Shown piece by piece: positions 7,214 through 29,471 of a stretch of DNA of 36,982 nucleotides. The notes below the pieces were generated by a model. It was not told the origin of the DNA, made no database searches, and saw nothing but the letters and a program-made list of their open reading frames with translations. The stretch comes from an uncultured Bacteroidaceae bacterium (GTDB taxonomy: Bacteria > Bacillota > Clostridia > Christensenellales > CAG-917). A program made the position numbers and the translations under genes. The stretch's first letter is position 1. Every line of letters begins with the position of its first letter. The stretch spans positions 1-36,982 of the forward strand of contig CAYIYN010000002.1 in assembly GCA_964367645.1 (NCBI GenBank). Direction: 5' to 3'.

Positions 7214-7242
7214 TTGACAAATCTGCCCGCGAATATTATTAT
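7214..7242 (+). promoter_or_regulatory. sigma-A type promoter of tRNA-Asn
   Basis: TTGACA (7214-7219), 17-bp spacer, TATTAT (7237-7242), about 55 nt upstream of the mature tRNA 5' end. Confidence 0.6.
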
Positions 7243-7302: not shown

Positions 7303-7378
7303 GCCTGTTTAGCTCAGTCGGTAGAGCATGCGGCTGTTAACCGCAGTGTCGGGGGTTCGAGTCCCTCAACAGGCGCCA
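7303..7378 (+). tRNA. tRNA-Asn (anticodon GUU), CCA encoded
   Basis: Hand-folded cloverleaf. Acceptor stem GCCTGTT/AACAGGC. D arm GCTC-AGTCGGTA-GAGC. Anticodon stem TGCGG/CCGCA with loop CTGTTAA (GTT at 7336-7338). T arm GGGGG-TTCGAGT-CCCTC. Discriminator G followed by CCA. Confidence 0.95.
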
Positions 7379-7383
7379 AAAAA

Positions 7384-7414
7384 AGCACAACCAATTATGG
7401 CTGTGCTTTTTTTT
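7384..7414 (+). terminator. intrinsic terminator of tRNA-Asn
   Basis: Stem AGCACAACC (7384-7392) / GGCTGTGCT (7399-7407) with one mismatch and loop AATTAT, followed by a T8 tract. Confidence 0.75.
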
Positions 7415-7711
7415 GCGCCTTTTAAGGGCTCAAATCCCCAGCGGTGTACAACACCGCGTGGGCTTTGCCCACAGACACTGCTTTTCGCAGTGAACGCTCG
7501 CTCTCGCAAGTAAACTTGCTCCGCTCACTATTCCGTCGCTTCGCTCCTTACGGGGGTTCATTGACTGCAGTCCAAAGTTCATTTCGCCGTTTCGGTTACG
7601 TACGCTATGTACGCGCCCTCGCTTCTCAACAAAAAAGCGCAATCTCATCTATCCCGCGCTTTTTGCCAGTGCTTTTTTATAGGTTTAGACTTTCAATCCT
7701 AATGAGATGTT
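7411..7711. repeat. 301-bp tandem repeat, copy 1 (hairpin-rich, terminator plus promoter-like 3' end)
   Basis: Aligns base for base with 7712-8012 at an offset of 301. The only difference I see is G7688 versus T7989. Details are in the findings. Confidence 0.95.
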
Positions 7712-8012
7712 TTTTGCGCCTTTTAAGGGCTCAAATCCCCAGCGGTGTACAACACCGCGTGGGCTTTGCCCACAGACACTGCTTTTCGCAGTGAACGCTC
7801 GCTCTCGCAAGTAAACTTGCTCCGCTCACTATTCCGTCGCTTCGCTCCTTACGGGGGTTCATTGACTGCAGTCCAAAGTTCATTTCGCCGTTTCGGTTAC
7901 GTACGCTATGTACGCGCCCTCGCTTCTCAACAAAAAAGCGCAATCTCATCTATCCCGCGCTTTTTGCCAGTGCTTTTTTATAGGTTTATACTTTCAATCC
8001 TAATGAGATGTT
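7712..8012. repeat. 301-bp tandem repeat, copy 2
   Basis: Same as copy 1. The repeat continues for about 5 nt (TTTTG) into a third unit and then diverges (GTGAC versus GCGCC). Confidence 0.95.
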
Positions 8013-8054
8013 TTTTGTGACATAACGTTGTCATTCTTTGGTTTTGCAAAATAA

Positions 8055-8082
8055 AAAACGAACTTCGGTTGAAGTTCGTTTT
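8055..8082 (-). terminator. strong bidirectional intrinsic terminator (serves the GPH symporter gene)
   Basis: Perfect 12-bp stem AAAACGAACTTC / GAAGTTCGTTTT with loop GGTT. An A-tract lies upstream on the plus strand, which gives a U-tract for minus-strand transcripts. T residues lie downstream on the plus strand. Confidence 0.8.
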
Positions 8083-8168: not shown

Positions 8169-9692
8169 TTACTTTGAAATCGTTTCGTCGGTTTCACTGG
8201 GCGCGTCAGACGGCACTTGATTTAATTCGCTTGCGTCGATTGATACGCCGTCGGGGGTGGCGAGAGCGGCTGCCCCTCGCATTTGCTTTAAGCCTTCAAT
8301 CATTTCCTGTTTTTTCTTGCCGACTAGATCGTATTTGAAAATCGGAATACAACTTAGCAAATAGCAGATGCCCGGGAAGCCCGCAAAGGCGAAGTACACC
8401 CAGTTTTGGGTTTCTCTCGATATATCTTTTAGCAGTGAGCCCGAAACGTAACCGCTGCGGCTAATAAACGCAAGCGAAACCGCCGTCACCATTGCCATCG
8501 TTATTTTTATTGCAAAGGAATTGACCGAATAAGATATACCTTCCGTGCGCTTGCCCGTCTTAAATTCATAATAATCCACAGCGTCCGCTATCATGAGCAT
8601 AGGCAGAATGTAATATGCGCCGCAACCCAAGCCTCTAAAGAACAAGAGCACGTATGCGATGTAAATTTTCCAGCCGTCATAGCCGATGGTAAAAGACACG
8701 GCGATACAAATCGCCGATAAAACGAAGTGATAAGTGGACATTCCGATAAAGGTCTTTCTCTCGTCGAATTTTTTAACAAGAATAGGCGATACAATCATTG
8801 AAATCATTCCGCCGATTGCCGTGGATAAACCGACGATTGCCGATTGTCCTTCGTCACCAAGCAGAGCACCGGCGGTCTGCGTGGGGATTGGCACTGCGCC
8901 CATACGCCCGAAACCAATGATATATGAGAGGAAAATCAACATAAGATATTTGTTGTTTTTGATTGCTTTTCCCATTTCTTTTAGGGAGTTTTTCTCGGCG
9001 TGATATACCACCCTTTCCTTGTTGAAAATCGGAATAAGTGCAAAACAACCGCAGCCGATTATTACGCATGCAATAGCGGATATAAGATATTCCAGTTCAT
9101 TAAATCCGCCCGCATTTTCAGAAAACGGTGTGTTTCCGCCCGGCACGCACCAGCACACAACCGGCATAATTACGGCAGGCATAACAAGACCGACAGTCTT
9201 AAAAGTGCTTGAAAGCGTGATTGCCGCATCGCGCTCTTTATTGTCCGTGGTTATAACGGCTGACATTGCTTGCGACGGTATATCACCAAGAGTCATGGCT
9301 ATGCACCACAAGAAATAAGTGATGAATATGTAAAAATACAGCACGGGATCGCTTGCCGATTTAAGTGACTCAAAAGGTGAAAAGATAATTATCGTAAAAA
9401 TTATCAAAGCGGGAATCGAATACCACATAAAGGGCTTCAATTTTCCGATTTTACTCTTGGTGCGGTCGATGAGGTTGCCTATGGCAGGGTCAAAAACTGC
9501 GCTTATAAGTTTGCAAACGAGCAAAATCGTGCCGACGATTGCAAAGTCCGCTCCCATTATTTTGTTGAAAAAACTCGCTTGGTACGAAGTCAGATAACCA
9601 ACTATAATTTGAAATCCGAACAAACCGAAAGCGTAGGCAAACAATTCCTTTTTGGACATTAGCCTGTTCGTGATTGCCGCTTTTTTTGCCAT
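8169..9692 (-). CDS. glycoside-pentoside-hexuronide (GPH):cation symporter family transporter
   Basis: 507-aa polytopic ORF. GGAGGGGG SD. GNLIDRTKSKIGKLKPFM matches the GPH/MelB signature D-R-T-x-S-x-x-G-K-x-K-P. Confidence 0.8.
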   Translation of the reverse strand: MAKKAAITNRLMSKKELFAYAFGLFGFQIIVGYLTSYQASFFNKIMGADFAIVGTILLVCKLISAVFDPAIGNLIDRTKSKIGKLKPFMWYSIPALIIFTIIIFSPFESLKSASDPVLYFYIFITYFLWCIAMTLGDIPSQAMSAVITTDNKERDAAITLSSTFKTVGLVMPAVIMPVVCWCVPGGNTPFSENAGGFNELEYLISAIACVIIGCGCFALIPIFNKERVVYHAEKNSLKEMGKAIKNNKYLMLIFLSYIIGFGRMGAVPIPTQTAGALLGDEGQSAIVGLSTAIGGMISMIVSPILVKKFDERKTFIGMSTYHFVLSAICIAVSFTIGYDGWKIYIAYVLLFFRGLGCGAYYILPMLMIADAVDYYEFKTGKRTEGISYSVNSFAIKITMAMVTAVSLAFISRSGYVSGSLLKDISRETQNWVYFAFAGFPGICYLLSCIPIFKYDLVGKKKQEMIEGLKQMRGAAALATPDGVSIDASELNQVPSDAPSETDETISK

Positions 9693-29337: not shown

Positions 29338-29471
29338 TTTGAGGGATTGTAAAGTTTGGAGGATTGCAAAATTTGGAGGATTGCAAAATTTGGAGGATTG
29401 CAAAATTTGGAGGATTGAAAGTTTTAGGGATTGTAAATTTTGAGGGCTTGAAAGTGTTGGGGGTTGCAAAG
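29338..29471. repeat. tandem array of eight 16-17-bp units (consensus TTTGGAGGATTGCAAAA)
   Basis: Units start at 29338, 29355, 29372, 29389, 29406, 29423, 29439 and 29456. The three central units (29355-29405) are identical and the flanking units are progressively degenerate. An AT-rich tract (29315-29340) lies immediately 5'. Confidence 0.95.

Follow-up and report, generated by a model that had tools for sequence, protein, structure and literature searches.

What kind of element is the 301-bp tandem repeat that stands directly behind the tRNA-Asn gene of an uncultured gut bacterium, and does its duplication assemble anything that works? The repeat occupies positions 7411-8012 of a stretch of 36,982 nucleotides (contig CAYIYN010000002.1 of assembly GCA_964367645.1), here called the window, which is an entire contig of a metagenome-assembled genome of 1.46 Mb and 145 contigs. 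This genome is designated G000; the other G-numbers used below stand for genomes, L-numbers for the loci compared and C-numbers for contigs. An earlier note, made from the letters of the window, had proposed that the duplication builds a cassette of promoter, structured RNA and terminator. Comparison with relatives suggests another answer: as far as homologous sequences tell, the unit is a mosaic of repeat modules widespread in related gut Clostridia, and not a unique cassette. The reading that we favour, with some reserve, is that the locus represents a decayed stack of miniature units, devoid of cargo and placed 3' of the tRNA-Asn gene, whose last block was recently duplicated. The duplication as such is probably an ordinary recent local event, with no function of its own.

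The repeat is reported by Tandem Repeats Finder at 7409-8017, with a period of 301, 2.0 copies, 99% matches and no indels. When 7411-7711 and 7712-8012 are compared base by base, 300 of 301 positions are identical, and the sole mismatch is G7688 against T7989. The near-perfect duplication with a single difference described in the earlier note is thus confirmed, and so is its start within the T-tract of the tRNA-Asn terminator; the stem-loops listed there (7441-7457, 7458-7472, 7476-7492, 7506-7519 and 7599-7613) are all found in the predicted fold. The identity overruns the borders of the repeat by 2 nt leftward and by 5 nt rightward, and a 7-nt microhomology, TTTTTTG, is present at all three boundaries (7409-7415, 7710-7716 and 8011-8017). 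No gene lies between 7379 and 8168, hence there is no integrase gene inside the repeat, and none of its local open reading frames has a Pfam match, in agreement with their description as non-coding. The only other exact repeat of at least 40 nt in the window is found near 29355, where a short exact direct repeat (29355-29417) contains words of at least 40 nt recurring at a 17-nt offset. The parts of the locus on which the comparison depends are the following.

7303-7378, plus strand: tRNA-Asn(GTT) gene, the anchor of the locus (ARAGORN; Rfam tRNA, 70 bits)
7384-7416, plus strand: terminator hairpin and T-tract of tRNA-Asn, with the left TTTTTTG at 7409-7415 (read from the sequence and from the boundary analysis)
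7411-7711, plus strand: copy 1 of the 301-bp unit, with G7688
7712-8012, plus strand: copy 2 of the 301-bp unit, with T7989 and otherwise identical
7441-7457, 7458-7472 and 7476-7492, repeated at 7742-7793, strand unassigned: hairpins HP1, HP2 and HP3 of the predicted fold
7492-7551, repeated at 7793-7852, plus strand: module A, made of GAACGC, an inserted hairpin and the core
7506-7519, plus strand: hairpin GCAAGTAAACTTGC, inserted in module A
7528-7551, plus strand: core of module A, CTATTCCGTCGCTTCGCTCCTTAC
7551-7559, repeated at 7852-7860, plus strand: CGGGGGTTC, remnant of the tRNA-Asn T-arm joined to the end of module A
7581-7662, repeated at 7882-7963, plus strand: module B, with the motifs GTTACGTACGC..GTACGCGCCCTC and AATCTCATC
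7697-7716, repeated at 7998-8017, plus strand: TCCTAATGAGATGTTTTTTG, a decayed paralogue of the 3' half of the tRNA terminator, which carries the middle and the right microhomology

The core of module A, CTATTCCGTCGC-NNN-GCTCCTTAC, is near-invariant. A search for this pattern with at most two mismatches, with the reversed pattern as a control, detected it in 67 of the 108 family genomes, the highest count in one of them being 34 copies, and in 27 of a sample of 301 from the whole order, spread over several families; the reversed control gave 0 in either set. In addition, an exact-match scan of public genomes retrieved at least 120 contigs with the core. Among the matches listed, most are metagenome-assembled genomes of uncultured Clostridia, and some are labelled Christensenella, Christensenellaceae, Candidatus Coproplasma or Candidatus Scatosoma.

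The position of module A with respect to tRNA genes is the central observation. A tRNA gene on the same strand lies no more than 1.5 kb upstream of 63 of the 203 distinct copies, and 15 amino-acid species are represented. A match to the tRNA of at least 10 nt is found in 37 copies, and in 30 of these 37 the junction falls exactly 21 nt from the tRNA 3' end. Specifically, the TTAC of module A is followed by the tRNA end beginning at the C of the T-loop (GGTTC/RARTCC...CCA, where the stroke marks the joint). Other joints are found 29 nt from the end in tRNA-Asn (GTGTC/GGGGGTTCG...) and 11 nt from the end in tRNA-Leu(AAG). The identity often runs beyond CCA and through the terminator, over at least 46 nt, which excludes copying of a mature tRNA and indicates an event at the DNA level; the retro-copying of mature tRNAs was discarded on this ground. 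The resulting units, of 125-190 bp, often stand in tandem, with two to five repeats. As comparison of the loci shows, short units stand behind many tRNA genes of the group and behind one tmRNA gene. A few hairpins come first in such a unit, then module A, structured and conserved, with its terminal TTAC; the tRNA's own 3' end is copied directly after it, usually from the T-loop onward, and a terminator follows. At the tmRNA locus (L103, 2198-2750), module A stands behind the gene and is joined to a copy of the tmRNA 3' end. From these arrangements we infer that the units are attachment-site junctions of elements that would integrate into the T-arm of tRNA genes and restore the gene.

A survey of G000 that starts from its tRNA genes shows the same polarity: 5 of 36 have their last 18 nt repeated within 1.5 kb on the downstream side, and none of the 36 has them repeated upstream. 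The five genes, with one or two copies each, are tRNA-Leu CAG on C9, tRNA-Ser CGA on C13, tRNA-Ser GGA on C56, tRNA-Val GAC on C72 and tRNA-Lys TTT on C99. The tRNA-end copies of G000 are preceded either by module A or by other motifs, ..CTAC/GA and ..GGTCAAGCGGAGC/RA, which implies that several sister end-modules exist. A terminator hairpin, AATAATACGAAC..GTTCGTATTATT, is also shared behind the 3' ends of the Leu-CAG, Ser-GGA and Ser-TGA tRNAs (L237 at 5598, L238, L161 at 929, L195 at 4088 and G000:C9), and at L195 it directly follows the joint of module A and tRNA fragment, an attP-like arrangement on the chromosome.

Sub-pieces of the 301-bp unit, and only sub-pieces, recur within G000, each of them beside a tRNA-Ser gene. 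Unit positions 84-142, that is module A, are 93% identical over 59 nt to G000:C13:1722-1780, about 110 nt after tRNA-Ser(CGA), and unit positions 171-252, that is module B, are 81% identical to G000:C3:25679-25764, about 35 nt after tRNA-Ser(TGA); G000 has only three loci. Across 60 relatives, fragments of the unit turn up repeatedly, often at regular intervals. Not all of them are close to tRNA genes. Copies of module B in genus g2 are located away from tRNAs, and in G012 (L248-L250) module B is embedded in a longer hairpin that is likewise distant from them. In G086 (genus g15; L061-L080), module A occurs 34 times, embedded in non-coding mosaic repeats of 300-700 bp with no adjacent tRNA; several more hairpin modules with compensatory stem changes are present in these mosaic blocks.

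The remaining database searches returned little. Rfam, interrogated at a permissive E<=10, recognized only tRNAs in the window and in 10 related loci, and module A corresponds to none of its families there; blastn against phage and plasmid collections gave no match, and neither did an exact 31-mer scan of metagenome contigs. The two neighbouring proteins have no record in other assemblies, and no independent assembly of the species was found.

The architecture of module A was derived from 189 distinct copies. It consists of GACG, an optional helix (P2), CTATTC, CGTC, the mini-hairpin GC-NNN-GC and TCCTTAC. Helix P2, CGATTG ... CAATCG, is capped by a hairpin of any length and covaries, as in GCTATTG/CAATAGC, GCAATTG/CAATTGC, GCGTTTTG/CAAAACGC and GCGATCG/CGATCGC. 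Its Watson-Crick fraction is 0.72, against a maximum of 0.65 among 1000 shuffles, and the approximately 490 pair positions (7 positions in 70 copies) include 10 G-T and 20 A-C combinations, with 13 of the 20 A-C cases at the seventh position, which is unpaired. The mini-hairpin also undergoes double changes that preserve pairing, for example GTCAC-TTC-GTTCC and GTCGT-TAC-ACTCC. G-T and A-C pairs being scarce on either strand, the pairing does not tell which strand of module A would act as RNA. A small protein encoded on the minus strand was also considered, with the reading R-K-E-R-S-D-G-I and with several core variants being synonymous. It was rejected: the distance between GACG and the core varies by non-multiples of three (16, 19, 20, 25... 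nt), other core variants alter residues yet keep the pairing, and there is no Pfam match.

The tRNA-Asn locus of relatives places the repeat of the window in its history. Arrays of units stand behind tRNA-Asn in G009, G011 and G020. The cleanest, in G020, is a 200-bp unit made of terminator, three hairpins, module A, a 28-nt copy of the tRNA-Asn 3' end with a few base changes, and a copy of the terminator; the 28-nt copy and the terminator copy occupy the position held in the window by CGGGGGTTC. In G011, which belongs to the genus of the window, about 2.5 units follow one another, each of about 175 bp. The only synteny found was with G009, a species that bears the unit as well: one unit, homologous to the entire 301-bp block at about 70% identity, is followed by a diverged partial second unit. 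The contig of G009 at this locus (C108, L084; CAYJCS010000108.1) is titled 'uncultured Bacteroidaceae bacterium', yet it is in the same genus as the Clostridia genome G000, and the label is probably wrong. Module B is absent from the tRNA-Asn units of G011 and G020. In the 7 homologous tRNA-Asn units compared, HP1 and HP2 have stems of different sequence that pair in every case, so that the compensatory changes envisaged in the earlier note do occur, and HP3 (CACTGC..GCAGTG) is conserved in sequence. Finally, module A of the window is nearer to the copies at the Ser(CGA) loci of G000 and G009 than to the copy at the Asn locus of G009, which points to exchange between loci.

These observations can be arranged in a plausible sequence of events. 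Behind tRNA-Asn there would have been an old stack of miniature attachment-junction units, one of which would have lost most of its tRNA copy and gained the dispersed repeat module B. The end of the unit (CCTAATG..GTTTTTT) is a decayed paralogue of the tRNA terminator: TCCTAATGAGATGTTTTTTG aligns with CCCTAATGGGTTGTGTTTTTTT of G009, which in turn matches the tRNA terminator of G009, TTTTGGGTTGTGTTTTTTTT. After the split from G009, the block comprising the hairpins, module A, the tRNA remnant, module B and the degenerate terminator would have been duplicated head to tail, through slipped or unequal recombination involving two T-tracts, that of the tRNA terminator and that of the degenerate paralogue at the end of the block. 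Such an exchange would leave TTTTTTG at three boundaries, and the single G/T difference would have arisen afterwards. The signature of this duplication can be read directly from the letters, and the process is our reconstruction from it. One difference in 301 positions between the copies, against a divergence of about 30% from G009, indicates that the duplication is recent.

Module A is also found at the end of full-size islands. At L161 (833-7810), 6.8 kb separate tRNA-Ser(GGA) from module A plus GAATCCCTCT, and this interval encodes two DNA methylases, an IceA-like nuclease, an AAA ATPase with DUF6414 and a helix-turn-helix protein, a content of the restriction-modification and defence type; it has no recombinase. 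Two larger islands, of 13.7 kb in G124 and of 15.8 kb in G119, start at tRNA-Leu(CAG) and end with module A joined to 20 nt that repeat the end of this tRNA exactly. Of these two islands, the one annotated is that of G124 (L237, G124:C1, 5505-19301). It carries type I restriction-modification genes and an AbiU2-like HEPN gene; the only recombinase found in it is of the large serine type, with a gene that stops immediately before module A, and no tyrosine integrase was found. At L104 and L152, too, a large serine recombinase gene lies directly upstream of module A, and the stop codon of L104 is the TGA of TGACGC. As a separate observation, the large serine recombinase genes at L207, L209-L212, L222, L223 and L152 end in a tRNA-like GTTCG-N(21-24)-CCA within the coding sequence, followed by a terminator. 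These tRNA-like ends are about 5 nt longer than a true tRNA 3' end and could be a built-in attachment half-site.

The elements behind these junctions may be moved by a site-specific recombinase, for which the large serine recombinase is the only candidate seen. A more far-reaching proposal, which we put forward tentatively and regard as possible rather than likely, is that gut Clostridia harbour an undescribed family of integrative elements, with module A and the sister end-modules (..CTAC/GA and ..GGTCAAGCGGAGC/RA) as its cis-acting ends. Such elements would attach at the T-arm of nearly any tRNA or tmRNA gene, with large serine recombinases moving them, and would come in sizes from defence islands of 7-16 kb to cargo-less mini-elements of 125-300 bp stacking in tandem. 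Each insertion would regenerate an attB-like and an attP-like site, providing reusable landing pads behind tRNA genes, and the repeat of the window would be a decayed and re-amplified member.

Several points weigh against this interpretation, or against parts of it. The window has no recombinase near the repeat, and in G000 as a whole neither of the two large serine recombinases, on contigs C65 and C16, is accompanied by a module A. Of 30 homologous recombinase loci, 28 are without the module, which led us to abandon the idea of a single recombinase clade always bearing it, and the few recombinases that do have it do not form one clade by sequence identity. The copies of G086, being away from tRNAs, imply that integration at tRNA genes cannot be the whole story. 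Of the tRNA-Asn copy, the window retains after module A only the 9 nt of CGGGGGTTC, which by themselves are weak evidence. Moreover, a recombinase half-site alone does not account for the covarying hairpins of module A and of HP1 and HP2, circles of only 125-190 bp of double-stranded DNA are awkward intermediates in physical terms, and the two-copy state is known from the assembly alone.

The proposed small-RNA cassette depends on a second set of features, which lie in and around the repeat.

7214-7242, plus strand: promoter-like TTGACA-17-TATTAT of the tRNA-Asn gene (promoter scan)
7663-7691, plus strand: promoter-like TTGCCA-17-TAGACT, 9 of 12 matches (promoter scan)
7964-7992, plus strand: promoter-like TTGCCA-17-TATACT in copy 2, 10 of 12 matches (promoter scan)
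8055-8082, both strands: bidirectional terminator hairpin of 12 bp, outside the repeat
8169-9692, minus strand: gene of a GPH-type symporter, convergent

According to this proposal, the duplication assembles a working cassette, in which the promoter of copy 1 would drive a structured RNA of about 270 nt from copy 2, and the promoter of copy 2 a short RNA ending at 8055-8082. Both pairs of hexamers are indeed in place, and the only substitution between the copies lies inside the -10 hexamer and improves it; in addition, the unit folds better than shuffled controls, and HP1 and HP2 show compensatory variation between species. Nevertheless, one substitution cannot demonstrate selection, and the minus strand folds as well as the plus strand (z = -2.3 each against the shuffled controls). 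The stems of HP1, HP2 and P2 are almost wholly Watson-Crick on both strands, with almost no G-T or A-C pairs, and together with the equal folding of the strands this leaves no signal for an RNA strand. The homologous unit of G009 lacks the promoter-like stretch, as do the tRNA-Asn units of G011 and G020, no Rfam family matches, and the modules recur separately in other contexts. As to the strong terminator placed downstream by the earlier note, the hairpin at 8055-8082 does exist, but it sits about 90 nt beyond the symporter stop and is most simply the terminator of that convergent gene. On this evidence the cassette is not supported as an assembled whole, and we judge it decidedly unlikely; two of the three alternatives that accompanied it, a 'palindromic-unit mosaic element' and a 'very recent duplication', fit the data. 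We are inclined instead, as part of the decayed-stack reading favoured above, to regard the promoter and terminator look-alikes as by-products of AT-rich terminator debris and not as a designed small-RNA gene. The assembly itself offers another way out: a single 301-bp unit with a G/T strain polymorphism could have been written twice by a metagenome assembler. The 145 contigs of G000, the single base by which the copies differ and the lack of an independent assembly of the species would all be compatible with this. The junction between the copies (...GAGATGTTTTTTGCGCCTTTT...), however, shares only 7-9 nt with either flank, far under the word size of an assembler, so that reads spanning the head-to-tail joint should exist. 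Tandem units are, moreover, usual at such loci in many independent assemblies, as in the partial second unit of G009 and the 2.5 units of G011 behind the same tRNA, and an artefact is accordingly very unlikely.

Explanations that accept the repeats and dispense with integration of the kind proposed here have to be weighed in the same way. The units could be host-domesticated structural repeats, similar to REP/BIME or BOX, whose role behind strongly transcribed tRNA genes would be, for instance, to add termination or insulation, to hold off 3' exonucleases or to bind nucleoid proteins, with tandems produced by ordinary recombination and no integrative elements involved. A modular mosaic architecture with covarying stems, a terminator at the end of every unit and the intergenic clusters away from tRNAs in G086 and G012 would all suit such a function. 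What it leaves unexplained is the exact fusion at position 21 across 15 tRNA species, and equally the closure by module A of defence islands of 7-16 kb bounded by a tRNA and a displaced fragment. The patchy occurrence of module A across families, combined with a near-invariant core of 24 nt, resembles horizontal spread, and only three loci are present in G000; we therefore hold domestication to be unlikely. A transposition model would see in the units miniature derivatives of HUH elements of the IS200/IS605 type, module A being a right end with a subterminal hairpin and the cleavage site TTAC, and the GTTC of the T-loop a surrogate left cleavage site, which would account for the capture of tRNA ends and for the arrays. 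TTAC is the target of IS608, and the geometry of hairpin, linker of about 14 nt and TTAC is in line with this model, as is the fact that the alternative junctions all follow ..TC in the tRNA (GTTC, TGTC). The minus strand of the module A core reads GCGNAGC, a sequence that forms very stable mini-hairpins in DNA. Genes for Y1 transposases, on the other hand, are absent from G000, from G009 and from many copy-rich genomes, such as G025, G065-G067, G102 and G103; PF01797 is found in 34 of the 108 genomes, its presence does not track the copy number of module A, and no transposase gene lies beside any copy examined. The model thus appears extremely unlikely. A guide RNA of the TnpB/Cas12 type, with a scaffold and a tRNA-derived 3' guide, was set aside as remote: no effector gene was seen beside the copies examined and the G086 blocks contain no open reading frame, although no search aimed at TnpB/Cas12 genes was made.

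The arrangement has partial counterparts among known systems. The tyrT operon of Escherichia coli carries 178-bp repeats, related to the RtT RNA (Rfam RF00391), in which tandem units behind a tRNA gene each contain a copy of the tRNA 3' end. The units described here share the location directly behind the tRNA gene and the 3'-end copies; they differ in sequence, the window having no RF00391 match at E<=10, and they extend to many tRNAs and many genera and are linked to islands. Composite SCC/SCCmec arrays are built by large serine recombinases (CcrAB/CcrC) at the target orfX/rlmH. Serial stacking at one chromosomal site, reiterated attachment junctions and elements without a recombinase of their own are common to both, whereas here the target is the T-arm of a tRNA, the units go down to about 125 bp and the system is known from sequence only. 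The REP/BIME elements of enterobacteria and the BOX elements of pneumococci are mosaic intergenic repeats of bacteria, and the modules resemble them in being short, intergenic and hairpin-forming, in their variable order and in the presence of several module types per cluster. In contrast to REP/BIME, G000 has no gene of the RAYT type (no PF01797 match), and in contrast to both classes the fusion with tRNA 3' ends is precise and only three loci are found in G000.

The closest parallel is with genomic islands at tRNA and tmRNA genes, where integration regenerates the gene and leaves a displaced 3' fragment, sometimes in tandem arrays, a principle exploited by Islander (PMC4383910). As in such islands, the 3' end of an intact tRNA reappears downstream in the same orientation, the copy starting in the region of the T-arm; one tRNA can bear a whole array, and the defence islands of L161, G124 and G119 are bounded alike. 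Unlike them, most units described here are gene-free and, with 125-301 bp, far under the 2-kb floor for islands; one conserved, structured end module is used whichever the tRNA, the tRNA fragment of the window is reduced to 9 nt, and the only recombinase seen is a large serine recombinase. According to the same paper, tyrosine integrases are the only ones known to target tRNA genes (PMC4383910). A search of the literature on serine integrases at tRNA genes and on tyrT-type repeats returned only general Islander and TIGER papers.

The value of the locus lies in its building blocks: a near-invariant structured module of 24 nt, absent from Rfam and widespread in the order, which is fused with single-base precision to the 3' ends of many tRNAs and closes defence islands. 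If the large serine recombinase is the integrase, the targeting of tRNA genes, classically a property of tyrosine integrases (PMC4383910), would extend to serine integrases in gut Firmicutes, and the self-regenerating attachment sites would be of the kind sought for genome engineering. The same modules would explain the tRNA 3' fragments and the tandem repeats that litter the tRNA loci of these small genomes, which is relevant to the annotation of tRNA genes and genomic islands in metagenome-assembled genomes.

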